Below are positions 15,891-57,800 of a stretch of 64,000 nt of DNA, piece by piece. The first letter of the stretch is position 1. The number at the start of each line of letters is the position of its first letter. A model generated the notes under the pieces. That model searched no databases. It was not told where the DNA came from and saw only the letters and a list, made by a program, of their open reading frames with translations. This DNA comes from Takakia lepidozioides (Eukaryota > Plantae > Bryophyta): positions 24,800,001 to 24,864,000 of the forward strand of contig CM060734.1 in NCBI GenBank assembly GCA_030704615.1, written 5' to 3'. The translations under genes and the position numbers were made by a program.

Positions 15891-17908
<2,018 letters not shown>

Positions 17909-24939: not shown

Positions 24940-26624
24940 GAGGGAAGCTAGCGCGTGAACGCGCTCACGCTTAGCGGACTAAGCGTGAGCAGACTTCGTT
25001 AAGCGTGAGCAGATTTCCTAAGTGTGAGCACATTTCTTAAGCGTGAGCATAGAATGAAAGCGGAGCCTATAGCCGTGGGAAAAACAGAACCTATTGTTGT
25101 GGGGACGACGTTTATGGTTTAGGGGGGCAACATACGCAAGACATGAATGGAAATTTGAGAGTAGTGCGAGAATGGGTTTGTGGAATGGATGAATACAGGA
25201 TGAATGTAGGATGAATGTTGGATGGATATGGGATGAATGTAGGATGAATGAGGGACGTCAAAATACGGATGAATATACAATGGATGAGACCAATGACATC
25301 TGGGTTGAACGAACTCGAACGATGTTTGATGTTCACGTACCTTTTGTTCGAAACAGTATACATGTCGTATAAACAATGCCAGTAGTGAAGGTCCATGTAA
25401 GACTGGGGTATATTCTGAAAGCACGGTCGAAATTGGAAAGTGTAGAAAGTGTAGAAAGTGTACAAAGCATTGCCATTCATTTGATCATGACGTGGGGTAG
25501 GAGATTGCTTCTGAGTCAAGAAAGTGCTGCCATCAAACAGCTTAAAGCTTTTTCCATACAAAGGCGCGACTTTGTCATCTGTCACCGGACGTCACAGAAA
25601 ACCATCCTAGGCTTTGCAAGGTCATGCTCGAGAACATCTCAAACTCATGCAGTACTATCTCGCTCCAGTAGTCATCAGCAGGCCCTATCGTACATTGGTG
25701 AATGTATGTGTCTCTTTTTTGATCACAAAACATCCTCTGAATGTACATGTAGTACAAATGTTTGCATGGCACAAATTTACCTCTCTTTCCTAGAGAACTG
25801 GAGATTGTGTTTTTGAAGTCTAGGCAAGTGCAATCTGGGAAATTGGAAACTGTTACCTCGTACGCCCTGTTGTGAAGAACAGATCCCATCGTCACCATAC
25901 TATACACCCGTCCATAGCGTGGTGGGGGAACATCGACAACGTGGGTGATCCGACACTGAAGGGTTTTCGCTGATTCAATCTTGCACTCGTGCTCTGCACC
26001 TGCCTCAACCCGCCGGACCACCTTTCCGTTTCTTTTCGTAGGCCAGTCGTTGCCAAGTGGAGGGCGCGCAGGAAATGGGGAAGGGAAATCATGCGAAGAA
26101 TTAACCGTCATGACAGTTGGTCCTCTTGGCAGCCGAAATCCTGCATCCTCCATCATGTCAATTTCCTGTGTAGATAGTGTAGTTCCCATCTTAACTGGCC
26201 AAACGTTTGGGATTTGAGATTTGCTTATCACCGAATCACGGACAGTTCCCATCACGCAATGTTTCATGTCATCAGGACAAAACCAAAACTTGTGAGGCCT
26301 GGCCTCCCGCGCACTATAATGCTTGAACAACCCTGTTAAAGTTGGGGCTGGAGTCCCTGCTGGGGCTCTACAAATCATAGATGTGCACTTCACAAAGGAC
26401 GTTGCCCTGATAGTGGAACATTTCACCTTTGAGCCTTACGGAGTTTGTTCTATGTGCCACAGCGCGTCTGCGCAATCAGACTCCTGGATGGGCAGCAGGT
26501 TTGCCCCTTCCTCCCGTTTAGTTGTAGTTGTCGACTCCGTGAACTCTGTCGAGGAAAATTCACCCACAAAGGATGTTGCGTGCACGAAAGTGGGTGGCAC
26601 GGGCACACGTGGCACCGAAAAGTG
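24940..26624 (-). mobile_element. MULE 3' end: TIR plus C-terminal transposase-associated region with SWIM zinc finger
   Basis: TIR GAGGGAAGCTAGCGCGTGA and GCGTGAGCAG/GGATGAAT subterminal repeats homologous to the right end of 9518-11506; ORF 25575-26426 has YEVTV...CTCLDF...CKHLYY. Confidence 0.8.
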
Positions 26625-26964
26625 GCGTAATTGTGCGCCATGTCACCTTCCACATGTGGATGGGATGATAGATCCCAACCTTGCAGTGATACCTGCAGGA
26701 TTGCGTTGCATGCTATGTGGGCATGCTCGTGGTGCCGCCACTATGCTGGTGTGTGATCGATGCTCAAGAGGTTGGCACATGAGATGCTTGACACCACCTC
26801 TTGAGAGGGTTCCTGATGGAGATTGGTTATGTCCACACCTCTTGGGATAGTGGCAGTGGATATGACTTGTGGCAGCTCACAAGACATGGGAGGCCAAGCT
26901 CATAGGAGTCAATACCCAAGATCTCAGGCTCAAGTTCACAGGTTGCAAGACGGCGACTAACGAT
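26625..26964 (+). mobile_element. Fragment of a second copy of the DNMT/PHD gypsy (integrase C-terminus, PHD, 3' UTR)
   Basis: Near-identical to 44358-44691. Confidence 0.95.
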
Positions 26965-29150
26965 CCTGGGGGGTGCACTCCTCATTAAATGTACCAGCCA
27001 CGTGCGTGCACATGAGGGGGTATTTTAAACCCCCCCATGTACAACATTATACATACAGAGGGGGGTTTAAAACACCTTAAATGTAATTTTACAGGATGGG
27101 GTTGTTGTATTTTAAGGGGTAGTGTAGTGGTAAGAGTGACGTTTTGACCGCGATGCACCGCGGGATCAAATCGCGGGATCATCTCTTTGTTTTTCTCTCC
27201 ACGATCTTTCTCCCCTTCCCTCCCGCCGCTTTCTCTTTTCCCTCTCCTCCTCTCATCTCCTCTCCACTCCTCTCCCGTGTTCGCCTTCCCTTCCGCGGGC
27301 TTTCTCTTTTCCCTCCTCTCCTCTCCCCTCCTCTCCACAGGGCATGGTATTCTTCCTGATGTTTACAAGGTTTAGGGGAGTGTTTAGGGAAGCGATCCTT
27401 TTGGGTTGATGGGAGGGCAAATCCTCCATGGGTCATGACACAAGGTCAAGGACAATGTGGTGAGGGCACCTTCTTCTTCGACCTATTTCAGCCTGTCTTG
27501 CCCTCTCAACAGAGTCGGCCCTGAATTTGCAGCACTGAGACCTGGCATGAGTTTTTAGAAGATTGACAATGGTAGGACAACTGCAATTGCAAGGTGTGGC
27601 GTTTTCTTAAGGTATGATGTGAAGATTTTTTTCCATCCTGCTATTACGGGCTCTTGCCTCCTATTAGTACCTGATTTGGTATTCTTCCAGATGTTTACAA
27701 GGTTCTTGGGAGAGTCAGCTTGTTCTAAGCAGGCCGTGCTCAGCTACACCGTGGTTTTCACTGACCAATCCGTCGTTACCTGACTACAGACAAGTATGCA
27801 CACACAAGAGGTCCTCTTTTGATCTCAGTCCAAACCAGGAAGTGGTCAGAGGTACCAATATCAGTTCTGTCGATCAACACATTGGCACACTGGGAGAACA
27901 AATTTTTGTCCATTATGATATAGTCCACAATGGATCGTTTAGGGTTTGGGATTTCTCACGAGTCCACTGCACTTGGTCACCTACAGTTGAAGTCCTTGCC
28001 CTTGGTTGTATTCCTAGAGCGCCCCATTGAATCACCAATGTGTAAGACCGCTCTCCAGCCAGTCAAGGGATGAACTTCTTTGAGATTGAATTGATGTGGG
28101 ACTCTATTAGAAGCACTTTTGGTCATTGCAACCTTCAACGTACACCTGTTATCAATGAGAGAACCCCGGACAGTGTATCAGAAAATGAATATTGTCTTCA
28201 GATTGCCCACACAATGGGAAGTGCACTCTCCTTTTCCTCTCTGCTTCTGTTTGCTGTTCAAAGGTAGGCTTCCTGTCCTGAGTTTAAATTTCAGTCTAGT
28301 GCCGAGAGTGGGTGGACTCTTGAGGTTATCCAAGATGTCCTCCCCCATGTCACTGACTGGAAACAAGTTCAGGGAAGTTTTCTGCCTAACTTCATTTTCA
28401 TTAGCCAATCTCATAGCAACAGACATGGCTTTGGACACTGCAGCCTCTAAGTCGGATTTATCCAGCAGGGTCAAGACTTGCGGATCCAGGTGCAGGTCCT
28501 TGAGAATCTTTTCTACTCTGGTGTTGGGAAAACACCTTTTGATCTTAGTCCAAACCAGGAAGTGGTCAGAGGTACCAATATCAGTTGTGTCGATCAACAC
28601 ATTGGCACACTGGGGGAACAAATTTTTGTCCATTATGATATAGTCCACAATGGAACGTTTAGGGTTTGGGATTTCTCACGAGTCCACTGCACTTGGTCAC
28701 CTACAGTTGAAGTCCTTGCCCTTGGTTGTCTTCCTAGAGCGCGCCCCATTGAATCACCAATGTGTAAGACTGCTCTCCAGCCAGTCAAGGGATGAACTTC
28801 TTTGAGATTGAATTGATGTGGGACCCTATTAGAAGCACTTTTGGTCATTGCAACCTTCAACGTACACCTGTTATCAATGAGAGAACCCCGGACAGTGTAT
28901 CAGAAAATGAATACTGTCTTCAGATTGCAGTAGCGGCACAATTGATAAAATCAGGCACTGCTGATGAAGGCACCTTCTTCAACACATTTCACCCTGTTTT
29001 CCCCTCCTATCAGAATCGGCCCTAAATTTTCATGTTGAATTATGCAAGTTAGCTGGTTGAGTGAATCTAGGATAGTTTGGAATGACTTTGACATGATACT
29101 GCCAATGTGACAACAGGAAAGTATCCAGAAACAGGTAACAAAGAATTGTT
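26965..29150 (+). mobile_element. Left arm of a TIR DNA transposon (CCTGGGGGGTGCACTC..., 8-bp TSD CTAACGAT) with captured PPR/PDF-associated and LINE fragments
   Basis: ~40-bp imperfect terminal match to 35215; 27400-27525 and 28930-29150 are reverse-complement homologs of 57180-57300 and 58620-58830. Confidence 0.7.
27817..28928 (-). repeat. ~390-bp direct duplication (27817-28207 / 28537-28928) of an internally deleted LINE remnant
   Basis: APE endonuclease end DYII...SDHFLV; KFKLRTGSLPL; PLCGQSEDNIHFLIHC C-terminal motif. Confidence 0.75.
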
Positions 29151-29942: not shown

Positions 29943-32500
29943 TGTGACAGAGAACACCTGTGTAAAGCTGTGTCGGGCTGTGTCGTGCTGTGATAGACTG
30001 TGATAGACTACGACTGACCGTGACTGGCTATGATAAGCTGTGTAGGGCTGTATCGGGCTGTGTCAAGCTGTGTAGTGCTGTGCCAAACTGTGTTGAGCTG
30101 TGTCAGCCCGTGACTGACTGTGTGAGCCTGTCTACCACCCCTAAGGCCTGTGTCGGTCTAAGTCTACCATCTGCAAGTCTGGGCAAAAATTAAGGGTACC
30201 CCACAGAACCTGTAAAAGTGTCTAAGTCCCAGACAGCCCTCTAACATTACCCCTCCCCCTCTCAAAAAGCCGTGTCCTCACGGTTTACTGTTTAGGATCA
30301 GCAAACCTTTGTGAGCGAGCACCTTTCTTTCGGTGAGAGTCCCTTGGAGGGCTCTGTGTGCAAGCCCGAGCCCTGTCACTGGCTGATGGAGGCGATTGAG
30401 CACCAAATGGAAATGTCTGACCCTCCTGTGGTTGATAACGAGGTAACCTCTCAGGCATAGGAGATCCCCGTCGTTTCTTCTCTGCCATTTGTAGTGCATA
30501 GTCCTCCGCCATGTCAAAAGGTTCCTCCGTAGAACCAGTAGTATCAGAATCATCTTCCCCCCTGAGGTGTTTCGGTGGCCGAACCTTAAGTGGCTTCTCC
30601 GGAATTCTGCCCATGCACAAAATCATTTTTGAGTTTTCTTATGTCGTTTCTGAGTGCTGGCCGGACAGCAGGCATCGATATCATTCTGCACAGTGGGATA
30701 AGGATGTCTCCACTAGGAATTTCCATGGTCAGGATTACCTTCGAAGAGCTCACCTTCTGTCCCCCAATAACAACCTCTGCTCTGTCTGCGTAATGCTCGT
30801 CATCGCCTTCTTCATCATCTTCATACTCTGCCTCTGCTCCGTCTCTAGCAGGTTCTTTCCTTTTCCTTTTCCTCTGTAAAAAAATGGAAGATCTATCTGT
30901 CCTGAAGTCTGGTATTGAACACAATTACAGATAAACATGCAGTTGCAAGGCCCAAAACAGCCTTGCTACAAATCGAAATGACCCTTCATTTGCAGCCCAA
31001 ATCAACCTTGCGTTGATGCAAGGTTGTTTGTGGGGCTTGCAACAATGGGAATGGAGTCCAATATAGACTTCACCAGGACTCAGGACACAGGACACAAGAC
31101 ACAGAACTGCAGCCCAAATCAACCTTGCGTTGACGCAAGGTTGTTTCTGGGGCATGCACCTGGGGGATTGAAGGAAAAAACCGACATTGGCAAGACTCTC
31201 AAACTACCTTGCGTCAACGCAACGTTGTTTGATGAGCTTTAGCAGTTCTAAAAAAACCTGCAGAAGGACACTGGACTGCAGCCCAAATCAACCTTGCGTT
31301 GACGCAAGGTTGTTTATGGGGCTGGCAGTTTTGGGAGTGAAGGCAAAAGGAGACATTGGCTGTACTCTCAAACAACCTTGCGTCAACGCAAGGTTGTTTG
31401 GTGAGCTTGAACCGTTCAACAAAATCCTTCAGAAGGGCACAGGCCTGCAGACCAAATCAAACCTTGCGTTGATGTAAGGTTGATTGTGGGATTTGCAACG
31501 GTGGGATCACAGACAGTGAATGGGAAAAATAGACATAGACAGTACACTCCAAACAACCTTGCGTCAACGCAAGGTTGTTATGTGAGATTCAAACTTCAAA
31601 AGAAAGGAGAACCAGGCCACTCAATTCGGGTCGAAATCAATCAGTCAAAGGACAATGTTCGTTTCGGATGTCTATGTCTGTCACCTGAATCAACCTTGCG
31701 TTGACGCAAGGTTGATTGGGGTTTTCTTAAAAGAAACATCTTCTTGTTTATCAGTCAATATTCGGGCATTCCAGCTACCAGCAAATCAACCTTGCGTTGA
31801 CGCAAGGTTGATTGTGATCTATCACACAAACTGCAAACTCTTCTGTGGCAAATGGAATGTCACACATACCTCGGCTTGCTTCTTCGGACCGCTCGAAGAC
31901 GCACCTCCCGTCTGGCTCATCTCCTTCAATTCGTGTGGGAGGACAGGTCCCAGAAGATCAGGCTGGTGGGTGACAAAACCACGCACTTCAAGCTCCGGTG
32001 TCTCTTCCATTAGGCGAACTACCTGGGACTGTTGTCTGAGGCGGGTCCAGGGTTACTCCTCTCCGCCCTCAAAAGATTGAAGCTCGCTAGGCTCCTCCTG
32101 CACAGCAGCTAAACCCTCTAGAGATGGCCGTGCAACTGCTCCTCCGGCCTCTCGCTCTCCAGCCTCTGCCTCCCCCTCTCCTCCGGCCTCTCTCACCCCG
32201 GTGTCCTCCCCCAACATGAGTTCCCTTCGGATCTTCTTCATTCTCTCCTTCGCTCGCAACCTTTTTTGCTGGATGTGAAGTACAGAGTCCGGCGGCGCCT
32301 TCTTCTGGCTCGAGAGGGAGTCTCACTATCGACAGGATCCAGGATTGCAGCTAGGGAGGGAAAAAGTGTTGCGAGAAAGAGGGAGTTCACTTGCCTCTCC
32401 CCCGCCCCTACTGCGCCAAGATGCCAGCTTCGTGGAGAAGCGGCGGGGTTGCGTGGAGCATCTACATGCAAGACACGTCGTCTCTGAACGGTCAATAGTC
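29943..32500 (-). mobile_element. 3' portion of an LTR retrotransposon: LTR 29943-30246, PPT 30247-30264, spliced acidic accessory ORF
   Basis: Minus strand reads GAGAGGGGGAGGGGTAA|TGTTAG...TGTCACA; LTR contains ~10-bp CTGTG repeats; acidic ORF pieces at 30586-30877, 31866-32010 and 32053-32259. Confidence 0.6.
31003..31810. repeat. Nine copies of a 24-bp hairpin CAACCTTGCGT-TG-ACGCAAGGTTG
   Basis: Copies at about 31003, 31120, 31204, 31289, 31373, 31459, 31554, 31691 and 31787, in both orientations. Confidence 0.9.
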
Positions 32501-32753
32501 GCGCTAAAATCACATCTTAAGATAGAATGAACGGGTGGCTGGACAGCTGGTGTCTGAAAAAAACCGTTGGATACAGGCAGTTAATGATTACATAGGATAC
32601 CTTGTCAGATGGGTCATGTGGATGGATGAGGATAAATGGCCTAGTGCAAAGTGGAATGAAACCGCTCATCCAGCTAGCCGTGCATCGGCAGTGACGTTCC
32701 AATATGGGCGCTTCGATCATGTTGTTTGATGCTATCCCCAGACGTACGGCACG

Positions 32754-34752
32754 TTGCTCCAGTGCTGGCACACTTTGTTGGACACTGTTCCCGTACTCTT
32801 CTCTGCTTTACGAATGGCTCTCACAAGAGAGTTGGTAAAATTCTACTGTCCTTACAAATCGCTCCCCCTCACCAAAGTGCCAGACGCCAATGGGATGGCA
32901 ACCGTGGGAGAGGATGTCCTCTGTAGAAGCTTGGATCTGCAAGTTGGAACTGTGCATGTGGAGAAAGAAGTGCACGACTCTGTCGGTAGGGTCGACAGTA
33001 TGATGATTCTGGAGCCATTCATGTGCGATGACCGTATTAGACAATGGAGAGTTTCAGCAAGCACTTACCGTGTGCACGGGGATCAGCGACGTTTGTCTGC
33101 AGGTTCTACACTCACACCAGGAACTGCCGCTTCGGTAGCTCCGGCCTTCACACCTGCTACAATAAAAAAAAAAAAGGACACCAGCACATCGACGGCTTTT
33201 GTCAATCTCTCAGAAAGCTCCGGTGACGACGACATCTCTGAGATTCCACCACCTCCAACACATCTATCTTCTGTCGAAGAACCAGATTTGCAGGAGATAG
33301 GCAGTGTCGTTCCAAAGTTGCAGTCTATGAAAGGGTTGCCAAACTGCAGAAGTGACGTGCGTGGAATTGCATGGGGAACAATAAATATTGTAAGAGCAAA
33401 ATACCTTCCCGCAGAATTTGATGGAGATGTGGTTTTTGAGCTGCCACCTCCGACGTCCTGTGGAGGTTTGGGGGGACTCATGCAAGGGATGGACAAGAAG
33501 CACGACGGACACCTTTGGTGTCGAACTAAGACAACCAAAATACATAACCCTCATGGCTTGTCTTTCCGTAGATCAATCTGCGTTGGGCACCTACATTGTG
33601 GAAATGAAGCCTACAACTGTCTGGCATTGAGAGGCTCCCCAAACGAGACGGAGTGGGAGGGTTGCGCGGATAACCCATTCAAGGTTGGGTGCCCACCTCC
33701 TAAAAACATGACGTTGCTCTGCAAATATTGCAAAACGGCTCTAACATGCATTGGCACATGCAAGGCCCGCATGTACTATGTGCTCCATCGTTTACGTGGC
33801 CTTACCTGAGCTTGTGTTCATCTCGGCAATCATACCCACCCCGTATCGAAAGGGGATTGTCGAGAAAGTCTTGAAACAATTCGGGGACTTCTACGGCGCG
33901 AGGTGGAGAATGCCCCTTATGCACCGCCATCTGCAATTGCACTTTCTGCAAGCAAGAGCTTCTTGCAAAAACACATTCTAGGAGGAGCGGAAGAGAACAC
34001 TGAGAAACTTGACAGTGAAAAACTGGACGTCGTTATGGACTATTTCTTGACCCTTAGTTCACCCAATGTACGCAACCAGATCAACGCACTCAGAATGGGG
34101 ACAGGGAGCACAGGTTATGTGGATAGCCTCCTGGAATTGAAGCAGAGAAGCATGTATGACTTCATTCAAGATAATGTCTTTCCTGGTCAGGGCTCGTTGA
34201 AAGTGTTCTTATTCAAGATGTCCACAGTTGCGGAGGGAAGTGGAGTTAGTTTGGTCCGCAGAATGCAGCCCGGTGGCGATCTCCAGAAATCATAGCTCAT
34301 GTTTGATCATGTGAAACATGTGAAGGGCTGGACAACCATGGCTGCCCATGTGTACGATCCATCTTACCAAAGAGTTATGACAATTGCAGTGTGTGACATG
34401 CAATCCGAAGACACTAGTCTCAAATCCTGATGTGGAAGTCCCTTGTGAGAGTCATGACGAATCATGGTGTCTCAGATCCAAATTTTCATGGATTTATGGC
34501 GGATAGTGCGCAGACAAATTGGAATGCAGTCCGGTGTGTTTTTGGAAGTGGTGATCCAAAAATACCCATGGTGGGCAGGGAACGCACTTGCCTGTTCCAT
34601 TGGACTCAGTCCCTCCGAAGGCAAACCAAGAATTGCATAAAACCAGAGTTGCAGGAGGAACACATGAGACTCTGCCGGCTGTATAAAGATGCGACAAGCA
34701 AGGTCGAAGCAAACTCCTTATACCAAACTATAAGGGCATGGTGGTACTCCTT
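32754..34752 (+). mobile_element. MULE transposase pseudogene (GCM/WRKY-like Zn domain plus DDE core), truncated by an LTR
   Basis: DGHLW...SICVGHLHC...CKYC...CVHLGNHTHP; MFDHVK, FMADSAQ, CLFHW (CxxH); in-frame stops at 33807 and 34293. Confidence 0.85.
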
Positions 34753-35214
34753 TGTCGTGCGCATACATATCGCTACACAACTACATCGCTGTCCAAAACC
34801 ACACAACATATGTGCACACCAAACACTAGTCTATCACTAGTCCCACACAAGTGCACCACTAGGCTGCCACTAGCCACCACTAGTGCAACCTCTAGTCCAT
34901 CACTAGGCTGCCATTAGCCACCACTAGTGCAGCCACTAGTCCATCTCTAGGCTGCCACTAGTCCACCACTAGCGCAGCCACTAGTCCAACCACTAGGCTG
35001 CCACTAACCACCACTAGTGCAGCCACTAGTCCACCACTAGGCTGCCACTAGTCCATCACAATCGCCCCCCTAGCTGGCGCTTAGGTCCCTCTAAGTCCAG
35101 GTAGCCACAAGATGTGATAGTGGCCATAGCCTCACTAAGTCCTCCACCACTATCCCTATTACACTCAAACTCGATAGATCAAGAGGCCGGGTACAAAAGT
35201 TGCCCCATCGTTAG
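34753..35214 (-). mobile_element. 3' UTR, PPT and LTR (34753-35060) of the second DNMT/PHD gypsy copy, inverted
   Basis: Reverse complement of 44684-45089. Confidence 0.95.
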
Positions 35215-35500
35215 CCTGGGGGTGCACTCTTTATAAAATGTCCGTATCACGTGCGTTCGCCGCCTAATAAAAAAACCCCCTGTATACGGGTCCTTGGATC
35301 ATTTATACCCCCTCTGTACATACATTTTGAAGATTATAAAACCCCCTCCTGTAAATATATAGAAATTTGTAATTTAAAAAAAATACCCCCTTCTGTATGT
35401 ATATTTCCCTTTTCAATAATTAAAAAATACCCTCAAATATGTATATGTATGTTTTAATATTATATCAAGTTTATTCATTTAAAAAAGAATAAAATCTAAT
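35215..35500 (-). mobile_element. Right arm of the CCTGGGGG-TIR element (now in direct orientation to the left arm)
   Basis: CCTGGGGGTGCACTC...AAATGT...CACGTGCGT abutting rc TSD ATCGTTAG (35207-35214); ACCCCC subterminal repeats. Confidence 0.75.
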
Positions 35501-35902: not shown

Positions 35903-36565
35903 TCACCAATACTCCCTACAAGAACAAACACCATTTTGGAAGTGGTGAAAGTGGTTTGCATCCCGTACAACAATCTCTTGCTTAGCTATCTTTGAGATGA
36001 ATTTGGTGGCTGTGTGGCAATCACCACACATCCGAAGATTCTTGATGATCCCTAAAGACATCCCAGAGGGTGTGTTAATAAGCCCAAAAACAATGGCCAG
36101 CTTCTCATTGTGGTGGCAAAGAGACGATTCTTTAAGCTCTTCCTCAACATCATGCAATGCAAAGTGCGGGCTTCACCCCTTCGCACATCATTTGCTCATA
36201 GGTCTCCAAAGCCTCCATCCCGCGCCCTTGCTGTGCATATCTTGCAATCACCGCACTCCACAACAGCACATCTCGTTCAGCCATACCGTCGAACACTCCC
36301 TTCATACATGTCCACGAGGGTACTGTTCAGAATGACATTTGATACAATTGCAGATCCAACAATGTCGCCATGGACCTCTTTGCCCTTTTCCAAAGCTGAC
36401 AAACTTACACACGCATTGCAAATATACACAAACGTGATGTGGTCGGGCTTCACCCCTTCCCCCATCATTTGATCATAGGTCTCCAAAGCCTCCATACCAC
36501 ATCCCTGCTGTGCATACCCTGCAAGCATCGCACTCCACGACACCACATCTCGTTCAGCCATGGAA
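35903..36565 (-). pseudogene. PLS-class PPR fragments joined to a DYW deaminase C-terminal domain
   Basis: RDVVSWSAMLAGYAQQG...KPDHITF; HHNEKLA...[10 protein letters not shown]...RDANHFHHF...CSCREYW; E domain and PG box missing, frameshifts. Confidence 0.9.
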
Positions 36566-37166
36566 ACTCCCTTCGCAACAACGAGGCGCCCTAGAGCCAG
36601 GGGATATGCATGAGAAGTGCAGATGCACCAAGTTTGTAAAGGTGTGTATTTTCATATTCGTTTTTGTGAGCTTAATAAAGAAATGGAGCTTGTTGGGCAG
36701 CATATGGCTTGCTTGTTGAGTTGGGGACGCTTCTAGTGGGCCGTGAGAGCTCAGGAGTGTAGGGCGACGGGGCTGATGGCTCCGCAGAAGCTATAGCTCA
36801 GCGGTGGCAGGTGCAGGAGCAAACCCCAGCTTGGGGAGAGCTCGGGAACGCCTCAGGAACACATGGGAACTCTATTGGGAGTTCCAGGGAACGCAGGGAA
36901 TAATGGCCGTGATGGGCCGTTGGGGCGGTATCACGAGATACCACGAGCCCAGGTCGTGATGGTTGACTGTGACTGTTGACCGTGACCGTTGGAAGTCGTG
37001 GTGCGGACACAACGGGTGGGCATGGTGACCAGATCGTGGGAATGGCGGGTCGTGAAGGCTCGTGGGAGTGGTACCACAGGGTATCACGAGGCAGCCCGTG
37101 GCCAACGAGTGCCTAGGGCGGGTCATGAGGAGTCGCGCCACGGAAGGCCGCGAACAGGCATAGTGA

Positions 37167-37203: not shown

Positions 37204-40200
37204 CACTCGTTTCGTGGGACCTTGATGGGGAGGCTAGGCTCTAAAGAACAACGGTTTTGAGCTAGCTGATCCGGCAGAAAAGTCGGAATTGCCTCCCTGT
37301 TGCGTTTTAACAAAGGGGATTACTCCCCTGCAGATAATCTTTTCTGGTTTTCAGCCCAATTCTTAAACTATGGGGGAGACCAGCCTGCAGGTAATTCCTT
37401 TGGACAGAATGTTGTTGGGGCCTATATGTACCTCTATTTGCTCCATTTTTGAACCTTCAGCGAATGGTGTGGTTTCCTGAGGTGGTTCCATTCGGAGGAA
37501 TGGCTGGTGGACGTAAGGAGGCACTGGCGGACCCTGTGGAGGCTTGCATGGGGCCTTGGAGGCCAAGTTTCATGAGCTCGTGGAGGGCGGTTTGAGGAGT
37601 GTCTACAGGATGCTCTCATGGTCATGCAAGTGAGAGAAGAGAGGAAAAAAGAGGGTGTTGGGATGAGAGCATGCTGGGGATAGACATTGCTTTAGTTTAC
37701 CTTCCTCGTACCTTTCCACCTTCTCTGTAGGCCGAGACCTTTCCGTAGGTGGAGGCAAGAGTCAGTCCGGGTTTGGGCTGGGTTGCAGGAGCGACATTGT
37801 GGAGTTGTTTTGGTGTGGGGGAGTTGTTGTTTTCATTCTTGTGTTTGGATCCCCTCCACACCTGCATGCTTGATTGTGCGCCATGCTAGTTTTGTGTGGG
37901 CGCTTGATTTTATAGGTGGTTGACTCGGGCTTGATCGCCGATCCAACCCTAGAGCATGTTGTCGATGGTGAGGCTGGGTTGATGACCAGTCAGACCATCT
38001 TTGTTTCTCCTGTGGTGAGGTTAGAGGTGATGACCAACCAACCATAGGAGTGCCTGCGGTGGATGCAGGTGCAGGTGCAGGCTATGTTAAGAACCTAGTA
38101 TTCCAAACCATAAGCCGCATCAGGTTCTCTACCCGGATACCTTGTGGAGAGGGGGTTAGAGACATGTTCATGACCGTTTGAGTGTCAGTTTGTCAACACG
38201 GAGGTGCCACTAATTGCTGGGGAAAGTGCCGGTACGAGCACTAGTGATACTAGCGGGTATACAAGATGGGGTGTGCGATTTAGGCCACCTTCACCTCCTG
38301 TGTCTTCTACGGAAGGTTCTGATTCGGATTGTGAATCAGGAGGACTCACACCGGTGGTGCAAGTTGTTTCCTTGCAATTGTTGTGGGACACAATGGAGGA
38401 GATGTATGGAGCCACCAAGGGGCCACGTAGGTACTCTGGGGCGGTGGGCACCATTGAGTTGGATGATTTTATCCAAGAGTTTGATATTTGGTGTGACTTG
38501 CAGCAAATGCGCAATCCACAACTGTTTTCGTCTTTCATGGCATGGAAGGGGCTGTTTCAGCACCTTGAGGGGCCGCCCATAGATGATTACCATGAGTTTA
38601 GGCAGGGGCACGATGTTGAGATGGAGGAGTGGAGGATGTCCTGGTCAGCCGACTATGTCTCCATCACTAGAGGCACAAGGGCATCAGCCACACCGGCAGC
38701 TGCACCAGCAACAGCAGCTTCCACGAGTAGTAGTGGGACTAGTGGTATAGCAACTACGACATCCACCCAAGCTACTGCTGCACCAGTACCAGTGGCGGTG
38801 CTTGCTTTCAACCCTATTGTGGAGTTCTTCGAAGAGTTGAGTAGGAACTACCAAGGGGTGAGGACAGAGAAGTTGAGGAGCTTGCAAGAGTTCCAACGGA
38901 AGCCTATTGAGAGCTTGAGGGAGGCTTTCACTCGCATGAGGCGCTTGATTAATGTAACCCAAGGGGTTATGGAGGCTCAGACAGTCCAAGTATGGTATGG
39001 GATATTGGACAAGGAGCTAAGGAGAAGGATGCGGGATGCAACTCTCCTACAAGCGGCCCAACCCGCCTTAGCAAATGTGTTTTTTGCTGGCAGAGCGGAT
39101 AGAGCTCAACATGGTGGACGAACGAGTGGTTATGGTGGGATTTGCTAAGGAGGCACCACGGGGTAGTGGTGCTCTTAGCCAGCCATTACCTCAACGTGCT
39201 CAAAGCAACAAGGGGGCTCAGGTGAAGCCCAGGGAAGGACAGAGAGGACCTCAGATGCAGGGGTCTCTCCCTTCATTTGCTGGCCAACAACGGGCGGATG
39301 TGGTATGCTGGACATGTGGAGGACCCTATGTCAAGAAGGATTGCCCAGAGGGAGGCAATGGTTTGGCACCGGCACAGCCTGCACAGTTGTAGTGTGGGCA
39401 TTGTGGCAAGTATGAGCATGGAGAAGCCCAGTGCTATGGTTTGCATCCTGAGTTGCACCCAGGCCAGTTCCAAGAAAACAATGGTGGCCGGGGTGCGGAG
39501 GTGGAGTTGGATCCACAGCGTGGGGAGGCAAGCCGTCAGGCCAGGCTTCCTCAGTCATTCACATTGGCAGAGATAGTGTCGACTCCGTCCATGGCACCTA
39601 GTTCTCGCCCGACTGTTACCGAGGCGGAGGTTACTATGTCATTGGGGAGAGCTACATGGGCAGCACCACTACCTAGTGTTGCTTAGGCTACGGCAGCTAG
39701 TGTGCTGCAAGGGGCGGCCACAGCTGTGTGCCAGGCTCCATTGTTCTCGGCTACCATGATTGCGACGCCGGGGGTAAGACCAGTTGAGATGTTCAGCTGG
39801 CAGCTACACTCTGTGAGAGTGGGGAGGTTACTTCATCTTCTGCGGAGATAGTGTAGTGCCGGAGGGATCCTCGGATGTGAAGGTCAAGACTGCCACGGCG
39901 GTGCCATGGCAAGCTGCAGCTGCCAGGCTGATGGAGCTGCCAGCTAGGCCAGCCATTGAGCGCGCCATGGTGACACCTGGAGTTGTCATGTTTTTGTTTG
40001 AGTGGACCGGCAGGCAAGAGGTACCGGCCACTATGAGTCTAGTTGGACTCGGGAGCTCAACCATTGATGCTGGGCAGAGCTGCTATTGTAGGCTTGGGCC
40101 TCACGGAGGCGGATATGGAGCCATGCTCTTTCCAGATACAGACATCTCTAGGAGGATCAGAGCAGGCTTGAGGCATGACACGGCGTGAGTTGGCTATTAG

Positions 40201-40749
40201 ACTACAGCTGGATCATCCTACAGATGGCTCAGTGATGAGAGCCAAGGCCATTGTGACAGACGTGGTCTCGTACGATGTCCTTGTTGGTGAGGCAGTATTG
40301 TACCCCATGGGCTTCACCCTGCATTTTTGGGAGGAGTCAACTTCCTATAGGCCTGGATGGCAGTCAGGGGAGGGCCGGCAGGTGCAGCTCCCTGTGACGT
40401 TCATAGGAGGAGTTGCGGTTGCCCAGCGAGGCAAGATGTCAACACTGGCAGCATTCACAACTGCAGTGACTTGGCCTGGAGAGTAGATAGCAACACTCAT
40501 TCAGAGGATGTGTCACCTCCGGGAGAGCAAGATGACATGTATGGTATGGCGGAGTTGCCTGCCATGGTTGCTCACACTCCATTGTGGGGCTCGAGCAAGG
40601 ATTTGCAGCGGGTTACTGATCGACGGGTGCAACAAGCCTGGGTAGAGGCTTTTGTACCGTCAAGAGAGGAGGACGGTGCAGGGATTGCACCAGGACCACC
40701 TCAGTTGTCTCCATTGAACACCACACCGATCGTGTGGCAGTGTCCGGAT

Positions 40750-41700
40750 GAAGGCATTTGCCTTCTGGACTTGTTTAGCGGGATCAGCACCGGATTGGTT
40801 GTTGTTCTACGGGCAGGTGTACGAGTACAGCGGTACTTATATGTGGAGAGGGATGAGATTGCACGACGCGTCTCCCTACGCCATGTTCCTCAGTTGGTGC
40901 AGTAGTACCCTGAGTTATTGTCGGTGTCTGCAGTTCGTGGATATCAGCAGGCCTTACCAGCAGACATTTCGTTGCTGGGGGCGCAGGATTTAGAGCGGTT
41001 TGGCTCCATTGATCTAGTAGTGGCAGGTTGGCCCTGCCAAAGGCATTCATCAGCTGGACATGGCAATGGATTGCGAGACTCGAGGTCGGGTCTATTTTGG
41101 GAGATGGTGCGGGTTTTGCGCCACTTACAGCTGTATCTCCAGCATACATCTTGGAGAATGTGCCACTGATGGGCGATTCTCGGGCTAGGGTGATGGCCAG
41201 TGTGCATCAAGTCCGGTCGTGGCTTGGGTCAGCAGTGTTGCTGGTTGCAGCTGCAGTGGGGTCACGGGCTCATCGTCCACGGTTATGGTGGACTAACTTG
41301 ACGTCACCCGCACTGCTCAAGCGTGCATTTGATGGGGTGCAGCGGCCAGCACACCTCACAGTGGATAGCATTTTGGACACAGGGAGGCAGTCTCAGCGTG
41401 TGAGACACGATGACCGTTCGCCTTTGGCAGTGGTCAACAAGGTGGGTCAACCACGAGCAGCACTACCTACACTGCTCAGCTTTCCAGGATCGCATGCTTT
41501 CTGGGATGGTGGACCTGGCCTCCTGTGGGATGCTCAGCTGCAGCAGTTAGTGGAGCCTAATGCCGATGAGCGAGAGCGGGCTATGGGTTTTTCCACTAGG
41601 ACCACGGCGGTGCCTTCTCTTTCTGAGGCATCACGTCGTCAGGTGTTGGGGCAAGCGATGGATCTCAATTGCTTGACCTGGATTATCAGCTTGGCTATGG
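40750..41700 (+). pseudogene. C5-cytosine DNA methyltransferase domain (DNMT3-like, unpermuted) embedded in pol
   Basis: Motif I LLDLFSG (40762), II YVERD, IV AGWPCQ (41023-41040), V SGLFWEMVRVL, VI ILENV (41148), VIII AHRPRLWWTN, IX ERERAMGF, X RQVLGQAM; one stop (40903) and one frameshift (~41135). Confidence 0.92.
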
Positions 41701-44439
41701 CTGAACAATGTAGAGTGCAGAGTGCACTTCCCTTGACGGTCTCTCTGCCTACCGAGACAGTACAGGCAGTGAGTGGGGGCGAGCCGGTGAAGACCACGGG
41801 GTGTAGAATCCATGGCACACGTGGGAGATGCTCGAGGTTCAGAGGGAGTTGGCAGCCAAGGCGGCTGTGATGGATGAGGTTGGGGATTCTTCTCGGGTTG
41901 AGGAGGTCCTCAAGGATGAGATGATGGGGCAGGATGAGGCCTTGTCATTGACTGAGCAAGCAGGGAGTATTGCTCATGAGGTTGCGGCATAGCAACCACG
42001 GGACGCGTCTCCTACCTCTAAGTCTGCTGGACTTAAGGTTGCAGTTACGGAGGACAATTGCGAGCCTGCCATTGGACCCATTGTCACTGGAGGAGAGAGA
42101 CGACGTATATGACAGTTCCTGAGGGCTTACAGGAATTGCTTTGCCTTCAGTTTGAAGGATTTGGGAGCACTGAAGGGTCAAGAGATTCGTATTGAATTGG
42201 CCACGGACACGCCAATCTTTCGAAGACCCTATAGATACAGTGACATGGAGAGGTCTTTGATTCAGATGAGGACTCAAGATCTCTGGGAGGCTGGTTTGGT
42301 GGAGAGTATGCTTCAGCCACGGTGATGCCAGCCAAGAATGATGTCTATGGCAATTGGACGGAGAGGCGTATGTGCGGTGACTACCGGCCTGTAAATCGTT
42401 AGAGCAAGTCCGATAAGTATGCCATGCTCACACCGAAGGAGATCTTTGATGCCATTGGGCATGCCAAGGTCTTTAGCACTCTGGACTTGCGGTCTGGATA
42501 TCACCAGTTGCCGATCAAGGAGGCGGACAAGCAGAAGTCGACATTCTGGGGGATCAATGAGCACGGGAAGGATTGCCTATATCAGTGGCGATTTCTTACC
42601 ATTTGGGCTTAAGAACGCTCTTGTAGAATTCCAGAGAGTCATGGACAGGATTCTAGCAGGGGTGGACTTTGCTCAATGCTACATAGATGACATCATCATC
42701 TTTAGTGCTACGGTGGAGGAGCACGAGAGACACCTTCAAATGGTGTTTGAGCGCTTGAGAGGACACGGATTGAAATTACATCTGGGGAAGTGCAAGTTCT
42801 TCCACAACCAGATTGAGTATCTGGACCACATGATAAATCCTGGAGGATTGGGGGTGCAGCAGACTAAGGTAGAGGCCATCGCACAGATTCCACCCCCCAC
42901 GGATGTGAGCCGAGTTTGAGCTTTCATGGGGTTGGCAAACTACTATAGACGGTTTGTCAAGGGATTTAGTGCTATTGCAAAGGCTCTAACCAAGCTGACC
43001 AAGGTAGACCAGGAGTGGCAATGGGAAGATGAGCAAGAGCGAGCTTTTCAGGAGCTCAAGGCGAGGTTGACCTCGACGCCGATCTTGAGACGACTTATCA
43101 GGGGGCGTCCCTTTCAGCTGCATACAGATTGGAGCATGCGGGGGCTTGGAGCGGTTCTCACACAGGTGGATGATGAGGGAAGAGAGTTCGTAGTTGCTTA
43201 TGCTAGCCGCTCGAACAACGCTGCAGAGTCTCTAAGTATAGCTCATATGAGGGGGAGTGCTTAGCTGCAGTGTGGGCCATAACACACTTCAGGTGCTATC
43301 TATACGGCAATCTCTTCACCCTTGTCACTGATCACCAGCCACTCAAGTGGTTGATGGAGTCAGACAAGCTTACAGGGAAGTTTGCACGGTGGGCACTTAT
43401 ACTCCAAGAGTATGACTTTCAGGTTGTGCATCGACCGGGTTTGGTCAATAGGGATGCGGATGGATTGAGTCGCAATCCATGCACGAGCCAGCAGGATGAC
43501 ACTTGAGCTCGGTGGCATGGTGAGACGGACGAAGAGATGGTGCCGGGATGGCATGCATCTACCTTTTTGTGTATCTTGGCATCGGGAGGTCAGATTGGAC
43601 CTATAACAGGGATGACTGTAGACGGAGTGTCTGAGGACCCTGAGGCTAGTGATGAGCCAGGTGGTGCCAGAGATATACATGAGGATTCAGTTGTGTTGGA
43701 CTACCTCCGCACTGGAGACACGGCAACTAGTGTGACTGCCAAATAGAGGGATCGGATCCTGCAACGAGCCAAGAGGTTCAAGTGGGAGGGGATACACCTG
43801 CTTTGCGTGTGGGAGGATGGTCGGGTGAGGATCGTGCCTCATCCAACACAGCGTGCATGGTTAGTGCGGCATGCCCATGAGGAGTTGGGGCATTTTGGAG
43901 TGTGACGCACTCATAGTTTACTGCAGGGGCAGCATTTGTGGCGTGGTATGCACACAGAGGTGCAACAACTGGCTAGGTGCATGGTGTGTGACAGGGTGCG
44001 TGCTTCATTCAACGCCCCTACACCACAGTTGCATCCTTTACCCATCATGGGATTGGGCTACAGGTTGAGTCTTGACTTCGCAGGGCCGTTGCCATTAATG
44101 ATGCGCCACCACAGATATGTGTTGGTGATGGTGGAGCACTTCTCCAAGTGGATTGAGTTGGTTCCATTGCCTGACAAGGCTAGTGAGAGGCATTTTGGAG
44201 TGCGTTTCCACCCTGGGGACTATGTGTATCTGCAATAGACAGCGCCTACGACCTTGGATGTCACAACAGGACGTGTGATTCTAAGGGTCAGGGAGGTGTT
44301 GCCTTCAGGAGTGTTGATTCTGGAGGGTCGAGATGGCATGGTATGGAAGGACCATGTGCGTAATTGTGCGCCATGTCACCTTCCACATGTGGATGGGAGG
44401 ATAAATCCCACCCTTGTAGTGGTACCTGCAGGGTTGCGT

Positions 44440-44583
44440 TGCATGCTATGTGGGCATGCTCGTGGTGCCGCCACTATGTTGGTGTGTGATCGATGCTCAA
44501 GAGGTTGGCACATGAGATGCTTGACACCACCTCTTGAGAGGGTTCCTGATGGAGATTGGTTATGTCCACACTGCTTGGGATAG
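44440..44583 (+). other. PHD finger (C4HC3) at the integrase C-terminus
   Basis: CMLC...MLVCDRCSRGWHMRCLTPPLERVPDGDWLCPHC. Confidence 0.92.
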
Positions 44584-45409
44584 TGACAGTGGATATGACT
44601 AGTGGCAGCTAACAAGACATGGGAGGCCAAGCTCATAGGAGTCAATACTTGAGATCTCAAGTTCACAAGTTGCAAGACGGCGACTAACGATGGGGCAACT
44701 CTTGTACCCGGCCTCTTGATCTATCGAGTTTGAGTGTAGTAGGGACAGTGGTGGAGGATTTAGTGAGGCTATGGCCACTATCACATCTTGTGGCTACCTG
44801 GACTTAGAGGGACCTAAGCGCCAGCTAGGGGGGCGATTATGATGGACTAGTGGCTGCTCTAGTGGTGGCTAGTGGCAGCCTAGTGGTTGGACTAGTGGCT
44901 GCACTAGTGGTGGCTAGTGGCAGCCTAATGATGGACTAGTGGCTGCACTAGTGGTGACTAGTGGTTGTCTAGTGGCAGGCTAGTGGTGCACTAGTGGTGG
45001 ACTAGTGATAGACTAGTGTTTGGTGTGCACATGTGTTGTGTGATTTTGGACAGCGATGTAGTTGTGTAGCGATATGTATGCGCACGACAGCTGTCAAGTT
45101 ATTTTACCACTAGTGTGAAGTTAGCTAAGAAATAGCTAGCTTTTATATATTGACATTTGGGATTGACCCAAGTGTCAATCCAGGGGCTACTACATGTTTG
45201 GGCACCTGGCGTGGTTATCTTCACGACAGATCGCGGTGGGCTCATCTTTCTCGAGTTGAGCCTCACCGCGTCTAGCTATGGCGCCGTAGTGTGGATTCCC
45301 CATGGCGTGGGGTGCACTTGGCTCGACTTAATATATGAGTGATGTTTTCATGTGCAAGTGTGTGAGTTTGAGAGAGCTTGTGTGCTTGTATTATTCATTT
45401 CCTTATCAT

Positions 45410-45739
45410 TGTGATGGACTAGTGGCAGCCTAGTGATGGACTAGTGGCTGCACTAGTGGTGGCTAGTGGCAGCCTAGTGGTTGGACTAGTGGCTGCACTA
45501 CTGGTGGACTAGTGGCTGCACTACTGGTGGCTAGTGGCAGACTAGTGGTTGGACTAGTGGTGGCTAATGGCAGCCTAGTGATGGACTAGTGGCTGCACTA
45601 GTGGTGACTAGTGGTTGTCTAGTGGCAGCCTAGTGGTGCACTAGTGGTGGACTAGTGATAGACTAGTGTTTGGTGTGCACATGTGTTGTGTGATTTTGGA
45701 CAGCGATGTAGTTGTGTAGCGATATGTATGCGCACGACA
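45410..45739 (+). repeat. Further copy of the ACTAGT-repeat LTR, 320 bp downstream of the first
   Basis: TGTGATGGACTAGT...GCGCACGACA, matching 44838-45089 with a different repeat number. Confidence 0.9.
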
Positions 45740-46793
45740 CCCCAAATCCCTCCATCACAAGGAATCATCTCTGACCCTAATCCTTCATGTCCAACACGCC
45801 TCCCCCCCCCCCCCCCCCCGACATTCCAAAGCCCTTCCTGAATCAACTGGACCACATTCTAACTAGGACCTACAAAATGAAGGCGGTTATCCACCACCCT
45901 ATCTCCCACCACCCACCCACCCACCCTCCCCTGTACTGACCCAATGCTTGCAATTCCCACCCTCAAAATAAACAAGGATTGGGGAAGGGCGCAACCGCGC
46001 CCTCCCCAGACCACACCACCATCACCCACACCTCCTTTACCCTCAATATACAGAACTAAAATCCCTCTCAGATTCCCCTCATCTAACTCCCACTATACCA
46101 ATGGTTCCCTGACCAAGCCTAATGCTGGCTATGGAATATACCATGCCGCCACTAATACTGGCACTGCTTTGAGACTTCCTGGCCCTGCTAGTATATTACG
46201 AGCGGAACTCATGGCCATATTCGAAGCAATATCCCTCTTGGATGCCTTCCCCCCCCCGTACTATATATTTACAGATAGTCTCACCTCACTCTTTCTTATC
46301 CGGAACCACATTTCCCGCCCATCCTCCCATCATCACCACCCTGACCACAACCTCATCACAGCCATCGTCAGCCTCACTATATCCAAAAACCACCCCATCC
46401 ACTACCTTAAAGTCCATTCACACACTGGCATCCAATGGAACGAGGCAGCCAACCTGCTTGCCCAAGAAGGCGCCTCTAAACCTCCAGTGGCCCCCACGGA
46501 TGATCCTATACATATCGCCCACACCCACCCTTCTGGCTCATCCACCCAATCCCAGACCCCCCCACTCCCCGGCCTATTCGTAATCTCATGACCACTCTCA
46601 CCCGTGAAGCTAACAAACAAGTCGCAGCTTCTATCAGTCACACCAAAATCCACATCCAGAAATGGACCCAAATCTCGGTACTCCACCACAAACTGTCCAA
46701 TCACTTCTGGCACAGTACCAAAGCCACCACTGATGCACAAATCCGACAAACACTTAAATTTAGATACGCCCAGTACATGGGCCACCAGCGCAA

Positions 46794-54899: not shown

Positions 54900-57800
54900 A
54901 TTCACTCAACCAGCTAACTTACAGAATTCAACATCAAAATTCAGGGCCGATTCTCATAAGAGGGAACAATAGGGTGTTGACAAATGTATAGAAATGTGGG
55001 AAACCTTGAGTTGGTGACCATGTGCTTCACCCCTTCTCCCATCATTCATAGGTCTCCAAAGCCTGCATCCCGCATACCCTGCAAGCATCGCGTTCCACGA
55101 CACCACATCTCATTCAGCTATAGTGTTGAACTCTCATTTCGCATCCTCAATGCTCCCACATTTGGCATACATGTCCACCAGAGCAGTGTGCAGGATGAGT
55201 TCTAGTACAATTGCAGATGTGATGATGTCACCATGGATCTCTTGGCCCTTTTCCAGGGTTGCCAGGCTTGCACACGCATTGCAAACACACACAAACATTA
55301 TGTGATCGGGCTTTCACCCCTTCCCCCATCAGTTGCTCATAGGTCTCCAAAGCCTCCATCCCACGTCCCTGTTGTGCATACCCTGCAAGCATCGCACTCC
55401 ACGATGCCACATCTCATTCAGCCATAGTGTTGAACACTCCCTTTGCATGCACCCACATTTGTCATACATGTCCAGTACCAGGGGTGTCCATAATGACATC
55501 TGGTAATCTGACAGGCATTCACGATTGTCCCACCATTGACTGGGGTCAGAAAAGTACTCATTCCACATCTTCTCCTCATCTCTGTTTCCTGTTTGTGGAT
55601 ACTTTCATGTTGTCACATTGGCAGTATCATGTCATAAGTCACTCCAAACTCAATTCACTCAACCAGCTAACTTGCAGAATTCAACATCAAAATTCAGGGC
55701 CGATTCTCATAAGAGGGAAAAACAGGGTGAAAAGTGTTGAAGAAGGTGCCTTCATTAGCAGTGCCTAATTACAATCGAATGTGTCGCTGCTGCTGCGGCT
55801 TCTAATTGACCATCTACCCATGCGGGTTTCTTGTAGCTATCATTCCACAGGGAATCATAGGTAATCTGGAGCTTGAAATCCGGCCCTCTTGGATGAATCT
55901 GGACCCACACTCTATACCTGCTCCTTCAGCTATCCATGCTTCTGCACTAATCATGCATACATCCTTGCCTTGTTGCTAGTAGCTGCCAATGACAACCTAG
56001 ATTTTTTCTAGGAAACACCCTCACACGAGTTCCTATGCTCAATGACATCTGCTACTCTCTGTGATGCAGTAGGCATTCACCTTTTTGCCTCGATTGTCCC
56101 ACCATTGACTGGGGTCAGAAAAGTATTCATTTCACTTCACCGTCACCTCATTGACAAACTATCCATGCAGCTTGACCTGAGACTAACAAATCTGCCATGG
56201 CCAAGACAGCCAGGCACAAGAACAAAAGTAGGTGTCCATACCAGTGCAGAGAGTGTGGATGCAAGCAGGATCAGGCTCAAGATCATCTTTGGCAGCTATG
56301 AACAGGCAAGGCACCTCAAACCCATTGATCTCCACATGTGTTGCCACCTTAACCAATAACTTTGCATCATGCATCCATGATGCCTCATCCGAGCTACCAT
56401 GCCATACCATCCAGGAACATTTCCTCTCAGCCCCTTTATCCAGATGTATTAGCCCTCGCTCTCTTTCTGCTAGAGGATCAGTCTGAAATCAACCTCACAA
56501 TTCCTAAATAACGGACATAAATCCACATTCAATTCCCTTGGGAATTGAATTGCAATGGCAATTTGGGTCTAGTCTCATATATCCCGGTGGACTAAACCAT
56601 CGCAGCCAGCTCTAGGGTGTTATCAGGAATAGAGCCTTAAATGGTACATCAGAGCCCCAAACAACCACAGATCCACCCAACAAGCTAACTTACAAAATTC
56701 ATCCTAGGTAATCTTGTGCTTGAAATCTGGCCCTCTTGGATGAATCTGGACCCACACTCTATCCCTGCTCCTTCAGCTATCACTGCCTCTACAAATCACA
56801 AATCATGCATACATCCTTGCCTTGCTGCTAGCAGTTGACAATGACACCTACCAACAACGAGCAGACTCTAGAAATTCATGCAGATTTGTTCTAGCAAACA
56901 CCCCAACCCTACTTATCACACTACTTCCTATGCTGACTTACGCTTCCAAAAGGCATTCACCTTTCTGCCTCGATTGCATCTGTTTCTCTCTGTAATCCAA
57001 CATGCATTCACCTTAGCCTCCATTGTCCCACCATTGAATGGGGTCCGAAAAGTGTTCATTGCAAAGCTTCTCTTCATCTTTGTTATCTGTTTTTGGTTAC
57101 TTTCCTGTTGCCACATCAGCAGTAGCTTGTCAAAGTCACTCCAAACCACCAAAGAGCTAACTTACAAATTCAATATGCAAATTCAGGGCCGAGTCTGATG
57201 AGAGGGCAAAACAGGCTGAAATAGGTCGAAGCAGAAGGTGCCCTCACCACTTTGTCCTCGACCTTGTGTCATGACCCATGGAGGATTTGACTGACCATGA
57301 ACCCAAGAGGACCTCTTGTGTGTGCTGCTTGCATCTATAGTCATGTAATGTCGGATTGGTCTGTGAGAACCACCACGTTGCAGCTTAGCAGGCAGAGATT
57401 GAAACACGGCCTGCTAAGGATGGACAAACTTCTTCACATCGTACATGAAGAAAAGCCACACCTTGTGATTGCGGTTGTCCCACCATCGTGAAGGATCTTT
57501 ATAAAACTCATGCCAGCTCACATCACGAATAAGCTAACTTGCAGAATTCTACATGAAATTTTAGGGACGACTCTGATAACAGGGCAAAACATGGTGAAAT
57601 GTGTTGAAGAAGGTACCTTCATTAGCAGCGAATTGTTCTATCAATTGTGCTGCTGCCGCTTCTGTTTCCAAGATGACATCTGGTACAATTCCAGCTTTGA
57701 TAATGTTACTATGGACCTCTTTCCTCTTTTCCAGAGCTCCCAGGCTTGCACACGCATTGCACACACAAACAAATGTAATGTGGTTGGGCTTCACCGCTTC

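Follow-up and report, generated by a model that had tools for sequence, protein, structure and literature searches.

A bryophyte branch of methyltransferase-bearing Ty3/gypsy retrotransposons with a stop codon between the methyltransferase and reverse transcriptase domains

KnitGypsy-Dnmt3, a retrotransposon of the alga Klebsormidium carrying a C5 cytosine methyltransferase (DNMT) domain, has DIRS-like repeats and is described, in the available text of PMC5890265, as an independent acquisition in the K. nitens lineage. The same text reports SymbioDIRS-Dnmt3 of Symbiodinium, whose domains methylate CG sites de novo in yeast. Here, a 64,000-bp stretch of Takakia lepidozioides (Bryophyta) DNA (assembly GCA_030704615.1, contig CM060734.1, positions 24,800,001–24,864,000, forward strand), referred to below as the window, was analyzed. 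It contains a decayed Ty3/gypsy element with the domain order Gag–protease (PR)–DNMT–reverse transcriptase (RT)–RNase H (RH)–integrase (INT)–PHD finger, in which the DNMT is the end of the first open reading frame (ORF1; Gag-PR-DNMT) and is followed by a conserved in-frame stop codon. We regard the element as a variant of a published kind: such elements are already described from a green alga, and the land-plant branch and the readthrough-type stop appear to be new in the literature searched.

Relation to described elements

KnitGypsy-Dnmt3 and the window family share the Ty3/gypsy domains, an intronless and unpermuted DNMT3-like domain with its catalytic residues, the repeat layout A-coding-B-A-B and purifying selection. 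K. nitens protein P0139, which is probably the KnitGypsy-Dnmt3 element of that paper, has the same domain order (PR-DNMT-RT-RH-INT) and is 40% (RT-RH) and 43% (DNMT) identical to the window copy. The two differ in host (alga versus land plant) and in the placement of the DNMT, which the available text of PMC5890265 assigns to the RT frame, whereas the window lineage has a readthrough-type stop in between. The main text of that paper does not mention a PHD finger. SymbioDIRS-Dnmt3 also combines a DNMT3-type domain within a retroelement polyprotein with split repeats, but by its description in the available text of PMC5890265 it is a DIRS element with a tyrosine recombinase instead of a DDE integrase, reported as an independent capture.

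The PR-RT-RH-INT order is that of Ty3/gypsy elements. No chromodomain of the chromovirus type is present; the C-terminus of the integrase carries a PHD finger instead, as do the green-algal Ty3/gypsy elements Gypsy-7a_cRei and REM1 (available text of PMC9940879 and PMC8557442). The accessible part of PMC9940879 lists no DNMT for Gypsy-7a_cRei, while the chlorophyte-type relatives found here carry one between RNase H and integrase. Among host enzymes (DNMT3 and DRM; available text of PMC6453930), the DNMT of this family best matches DNMT3A/B/C in sequence and predicted structure; it differs from them in lacking introns and in being embedded in a polyprotein, and from DRM in its unpermuted motifs.

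No description of land-plant members or of the readthrough site was found in the literature searched, most subscription papers lying outside it. Two later papers say “streptophytes”, citing the PMC5890265 work, and “Gypsy-DNMT3” is named again in bioRxiv 10.64898/2026.05.21.726589; the available text of that preprint, of PMC12344493 with its preprint and of PMC11244446 adds no land-plant members. The main text of the paper on the non-chromovirus clades Phygy and Selgy (PMC6317226) mentions neither PHD nor Marchantia.

Phylogenetic trees with FastTree supports were calculated for RT-RH (117 sequences, restricted to those in which both domains are complete) and for the DNMT (121 sequences, after removal of 14 redundant or partial liverwort proteins and of spans outside 170–420 aa), with P0139 representing K. 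nitens. In the RT-RH tree, the window element groups with Calypogeia, Marchantia and Sphagnum-like loci (support 0.969), close to Coleochaete (0.955, RT only). This group lies inside a clade with Klebsormidium and Closterium (0.983), the sister of which comprises elements with the DNMT behind RNase H (0.963). The DNMT tree gave the same grouping (1.0 for the window group and 0.951 for the clade with Klebsormidium). Rooting on chromoviruses (RT-RH tree) placed three proteins with the DNMT before RT outside both clades, and rooting on bacterial enzymes (DNMT tree) placed two after-RH proteins at the base.

These trees agree with the proposal of an earlier, sequence-only reading of the locus, namely that it represents a land-plant lineage of DNMT-bearing elements: the nearest relatives are from bryophytes (Marchantia, Calypogeia, Sphagnum), within a clade that includes charophyte elements. 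The window family would accordingly share its clade with the Klebsormidium element and not stem from a separate capture, and the acquisition assigned to the K. nitens lineage (available text of PMC5890265) contrasts with a clade that also holds Closterium, Coleochaete (RT only), liverworts and Sphagnum. For the 60 elements with both domains, the RT and DNMT trees share 28 of 57 splits, compared with at most 3 in 1000 label shuffles. This shows that DNMT and RT were inherited together within elements; it says nothing on co-evolution with hosts.

Domain order was also compared among relatives. Closterium proteins P0163 and P0190 read DNMT-RT-RH-INT, whereas 44 complete proteins, including Tetrabaena, read RT-RH-DNMT-INT-PHD; the relatives found through RT also include chlorophyte proteins (Tetrabaena, Haematococcus). 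The sister group in which the DNMT sits between RNase H and integrase (L036, L037, L040–L042, L045 and P0048–P0082) is large and includes chlorophyte proteins, and L042 is a single frame of 3329 codons. Public databases list P0346, from the cluster of P0090, as “uncultured Synechococcales cyanobacterium”, which is probably a binning error.

The stop codon, the methyltransferase and their possible role

The sequence-only reading had placed the DNMT inside pol. It does lie between PR and RT and in RT phase, but the in-frame stop at 41990 splits it from RT, and its position at the end of ORF1 had been missed. That reading had also overlooked the split repeats and the PHD finger. The window junction reads TAG CAA CCA. 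In the intact relative L028, a Gag-PR-DNMT frame of 1369 codons is followed, after a single TAG, by an RT-RH-INT-PHD frame of 1047 codons in the same phase, and L030 has the same junction. A stop occupies the homologous place in 27 of the 28 loci spanning DNMT to RT (19 TAG, 8 TAA; TAC in the remaining one). The codon after the junction is CAR in 28/28 loci, so that stop plus CAR occurs in 27/28; the strict CAR-YYA context is found in the window and in four of the 28. Moreover, 26 of 27 database PR-DNMT proteins without RT end 14–171 aa past the DNMT.

UAG-CAR-YYA is the tobamovirus (Type I) readthrough consensus (available text of PMC3159437). The window junction fits it exactly and keeps the frame; readthrough here would part Gag-PR-DNMT from RT-RH-INT. 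A similar readthrough signal is known from the copia element SIRE1. Since the DNMT lies in ORF1 before a conserved stop, the enzyme would probably be made at the level of Gag and packaged, with RT and integrase as a minor readthrough product in the window's branch.

In the interpretation we favor, to which we give a probability of about 0.55, ORF1 would yield Gag, protease and DNMT; the protease would free the DNMT inside the particle, where it would be packaged in large numbers and methylate nascent element cDNA before integration, and readthrough would supply RT, RNase H and the PHD-tipped integrase. The new copy might benefit by arriving pre-marked like host heterochromatin, or by being shielded from cDNA surveillance.

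A wider scenario is more tentative, and we consider it possible but doubtful as a whole: an ancient green-lineage clade of PHD-tipped, split-repeat Ty3 elements may have taken an active DNMT3 from algae into land plants, where the land-plant branch brought it under Gag-level expression through a virus-like readthrough switch, filling particles with the enzyme so that new copies are pre-methylated. If so, derepressed copies would be a hidden source of de novo methylation in bryophytes, including Marchantia. What retrotransposon-borne DNMTs do has been an open question since 2018, in part because their hosts were difficult to work with and the one Gypsy domain assayed was silent in yeast; 15 annotated Marchantia polymorpha proteins bring the question into a genetic model plant. 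The conserved stop predicts the dosage of the enzyme (Gag level, not RT level). In the trees, what had been reported as a capture specific to Klebsormidium becomes an old and large clade (462 protein clusters with E of 1e-10 or below) with two domain positions, and inventories of bryophyte methyltransferases would need to separate transposon copies from host DNMT3.

As the sequence-only reading had stated, the methyltransferase motifs are unpermuted and lie on one strand between LDSGA of the protease and YIDD of RT: I (LDLFSGISTG, 40765–40794), II (40840–40854), IV (GWPCQ, 41026–41040), V (41089–41103), VI (ILENV, 41148–41162), VIII (RAHRPRLWWTN, 41265–41297), IX (ERERAMGF, 41568–41591) and X (GQAMDLN, 41649–41669). 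The domain thus lacks the circular permutation of DRM enzymes. PF00145 (DNA_methylase) matches its N-terminal piece (E 5e-11, 43 bits, Pfam cutoff 22). A profile of 40 members ranked DNMT3A first (E 6e-23), followed by DNMT3C/B, DRM (2e-12, N-terminal half only) and M.HhaI (5e-8), and a single member protein used as query gave the same ranking. The DNMT domain of L028 was predicted to fold with high confidence (predicted local distance difference test score, pLDDT, 95.4), and all 31 Foldseek matches listed for this model were DNMT3 structures (best E 7.5e-21; template modelling score 0.70). The claim of a DNMT3-like rather than DRM-like enzyme therefore holds as a similarity ranking combined with fold, host DNMT3 sequences being outside the trees.

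Among 47 DNMT domains located before RT, the catalytic Cys is present in 44 (3 gaps), the motif VI Glu in 47 and the second Arg of motif VIII in 45 (2 gaps), and the S-adenosylmethionine (SAM)-binding motif is also almost invariant across very diverged members. The DNMT is under purifying selection in intact relatives, as the sequence-only reading required: the ratio of nonsynonymous to synonymous substitution rates (dN/dS) is 0.13 for L028 versus L024 (326 codons, unsaturated dS of 0.25) and 0.11–0.13 among L024, L028 and L030. Comparison of the window with L011 and L013 gave 0.08, at saturated dS.

Several observations weigh against the favored interpretation. Since 24 of the 28 junction loci form one Sphagnum-like family, they represent about four independent lineages; its context is CAA-CCC, a single base different from the strict motif, and an ATG forms the third codon past the junction in 23 of the 24, which would allow reinitiation. 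The stop is not universal: in several deeper relatives (P0100, P0116, P0129 and P0133) a single frame holds both DNMT and RT. In yeast, no methylation was obtained with the Klebsormidium domain, a result called inconclusive by its authors (available text of PMC5890265). The DNMT is less constrained than RT (dN/dS 0.13 versus 0.047, L028 versus L030), and closely related decayed copies show 0.41–0.79 for DNMT and 0.31–0.76 for RT, as expected after insertion. Finally, CpG depletion does not single out the element, its observed/expected ratio being 0.50 compared with 0.43 in a host tubulin exon.

The ATG past the junction lends itself to a different reading, in which the DNMT ends ORF1 but RT-RH-INT is produced through reinitiation, splicing or a separate RNA; many ORF2 proteins are likewise called with a start 20–150 aa before RT. 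We consider this route unlikely, because the window, L024, L028, L030 and L043 preserve CAR-YYA and the precise frame without having an ATG at this place, and because stop and CAR are conserved though the flanking residues diverge.

Equally improbable, in our estimate, is a role of the DNMT once it has entered the nucleus, where it would modify the integration site or other host chromatin while the PHD finger guided the integrase to selected nucleosomes, reader and writer together shaping the place of insertion. DNMT and PHD are in different frames in the window lineage, parted by the stop, and Pfam recognised no chromatin-reading domain in the DNMT. PHD fingers also occur on Chlamydomonas elements for which the available text of PMC9940879 and PMC8557442 lists no DNMT. 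Such a role would nevertheless fit the fusion of PHD to the integrase in the window and most complete relatives, and a Gag-level output that exceeds the enzyme need of one cDNA.

A non-catalytic or non-DNA function, for instance if the domain bound or shielded the cDNA or RNA inside the particle, would agree with the inactivity of the Klebsormidium domain in yeast, and motif IV reads EC instead of PC in 6/47 before-RT and 32/67 after-RH domains. With Cys, Glu, Arg and the SAM-binding motif almost invariant and a fold matching DNMT3, this function is rather improbable, and methylation of cDNA within the particle is retained as the favored role.

Distribution and copies of the family

The sequence-only reading had also proposed a multicopy, DNMT-carrying family, and the relatives indeed carry the DNMT in place. 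The C-terminal half of the domain used as query recovered 40 proteins (best 76% identical), 20 of which are named: 15 from Marchantia, 2 from Calypogeia, 2 from Sphagnum and 1 from Monoraphidium. Several are single proteins with RT/RH. A search of representatives at 50% identity gave 870, 462 and 55 protein clusters at E thresholds of 0.001, 1e-10 and 1e-30, respectively. Of 80 metagenome loci kept, chosen by DNMT motifs, 28 span DNMT to RT in the window order, and in 7 the DNMT follows RNase H. A pattern-based metagenome scan with P0010 found no relative in 91 matches, whereas an alignment-based scan did yield relatives; a scan of viral contigs gave 59 loci with weak partial matches only (24–48% identity, best E 1e-13).

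Summed contig depth, which does not equal copy number, was 0.5–1.1 million over the DNMT, 0.66–0.71 million over RT and 195 over the right flank in public run X1, possibly the window's own sample; run X5, from another study, showed the same pattern. One contig of a different sample connects motif X with RT-RH (41619–43780). Differences of contigs from the window numbered 112 A>G and 96 T>C compared with 32 C>T and 30 G>A, a bias that would be expected if cytosine deamination had degraded the window copy. Parts of the element are also covered by two runs presumed to be RNA, which gives no evidence on expression. An isolated event, in which a host DNMT retrocopy or a DNA transposon landed in an ordinary Ty3 copy, or a chimeric assembly has nothing in its favor but the general decay of the copy. 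Both are refuted by the same placement in the 28 loci and in named proteins of bryophytes and algae, by the equal DNMT and RT depth in two studies and by the bridging contig.

The second copy noticed in the window supports multicopy status, but it holds only the PHD finger and 3′ sequence (Table 1) and says nothing on the presence of the DNMT in the family. Its two pieces share an 8-bp duplicated site (26957–26980 and 35207–35230), each adjoining an identical GC-rich terminus, a pattern that would fit the entry of a DNA transposon into the 3′ region and a subsequent inversion. Long Cys/His-rich open frames without a Pfam match lie between the pieces (25575–26435, minus strand; 32730–34840, plus strand) and possibly belong to that transposon. 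A third family fragment (8658–8907, minus strand) is 92% identical to the 5′ leader segment 37756–37994.

Structure of the Takakia copy and its surroundings

The features of the element are listed in Table 1. The sequence-only reading had delimited it as 38204–45089; the element is there, but its right end is 45739 and its leader extends upstream to 37756 or beyond. The profile searches it had proposed (PF00145, RVT_1, rve) all gave matches, that of rve being weak. Element domains were found by Pfam in 7 of 17 fragments scanned, an eighth match being the RNase H of a neighboring element. The gag region gave no Pfam match, its knuckles being read from the translation; for the protease, the intact relative P0089 showed a weak Asp_protease_2 match (E 2e-4).

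The absence of introns was borne out by tblastn of Marchantia proteins, which align collinearly from gag through DNMT to RNase H without intron-sized gaps, albeit with many breaks. The window element is a dead copy, as had been recognised: the DNMT contains a stop and a frameshift, gag, PR, RT and RH are broken as well, and the integrase core is mostly missing.

In the complete relative L029 the order is A1, coding region, B1, A2, B2, with TGTC...GACA termini, which are of the TG...CA type, and a 4-bp target duplication. Target duplications of 4 bp were found in both complete relatives checked (L029 and L015); the window copy keeps the right end only, and its own duplication is therefore unreadable. 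This DIRS-like A-coding-B-A-B layout takes the place of two identical full long terminal repeats. It is complete in L029, while the window has B-A-B without the left A, no match to A being present upstream. The A repeat occurs 5′ of gag in 11 related loci and 3′ of B1 in L029, L011, L017 and L048. At the B1/A2 joint, seen in the window, L011, L017, L028 and L029, the right end is joined to the left end across two bases; this would be a natural template for regenerating both ends in reverse transcription.

Table 1. Features of the DNMT-bearing element and of its second copy in the window
Feature	Position	Strand	Evidence or remarks
5′ leader and start of gag region	37756..38392	+	Depth rise at 37463–37784; 37756–37994 recurs at 8658–8907
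gag; two Cys/His knuckle-like motifs; frameshift near 39080	38393..39460	+	63% identical to Marchantia P0007, residues 1–226
Aspartic protease (LDSGA 40043–40057); contains stops	39992..40483	+	tblastn, motif
DNMT3-like C5 cytosine methyltransferase, motifs I–X; stop 40903, frameshift near 41130	40732..41705	+	Pfam, tblastn, profile, fold, motifs
In-frame amber stop, CAR-YYA context; end of ORF1 (Gag-PR-DNMT); likely readthrough site	41990..41998	+	Homologous loci
Reverse transcriptase (YIDD 42680–42691); frameshifts and stops	42060..42900	+	RVT_1 E 5e-19
RNase H	42920..43506	+	RT_RNaseH E 7e-21, RT_RNaseH_2 E 9e-20
Integrase zinc-binding region and start of core; remaining core deleted	43830..44187	+	rve E 0.03
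PHD finger at integrase C-terminus	44440..44580	+	PF00628 E 5e-11; kept in L028, L029
Purine-rich tract (polypurine tract-like), immediately 5′ of B1	44823..44835	+	Same tract before B1 in L029
Repeat B1, ends GACA	44836..45089	+	Repeat comparison
Repeat A2, starts TGTC, two bases after B1; copy of left-end repeat	45092..45403	+	Related loci
Repeat B2, right end of element, ends GACA	45404..45739	+	Repeats; depth drops to background beyond
Second copy, piece 1: PHD and 3′ untranslated region, without DNMT	26625..26964	+	93.5% identical to 44358–44691
Second copy, piece 2: 3′ region and single B repeat	34753..35214	-	Matches 44684–45089; continues piece 1 across 8-bp duplication

Other parts of the window were also inspected. 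A further Ty3 element, distinct from the DNMT element, lies at 4020–7230 (plus strand); it is broken and of the chromovirus type, with protease, RT, SH3 and chromodomain, and its CpG observed/expected ratio is 0.88, above that of the DNMT element. Two related RNase H-bearing fragments at 45881–46591 and 60853–61926 (minus strand) are probably non-LTR elements. Clusters of fragmented PPR and DYW genes (DYW E 5e-39) are located at 27390–29144, 35903–36591 and 54900–59900, several of them interleaved with a repeated unrelated segment near 55780–56800 and 58336–59014 that is GTPase-like by eye and without a Pfam match. These genes point to a land-plant host, and a search with one neighboring PPR assigned it no more narrowly than to Streptophyta. 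The last exon of a beta-tubulin-like gene (Tubulin_C E 1e-40) was found at 17120–17908 (plus strand), and two tandem arrays, at 61842–63975 and 30999–31838, have repeat units of ~96 bp and ~85 bp.

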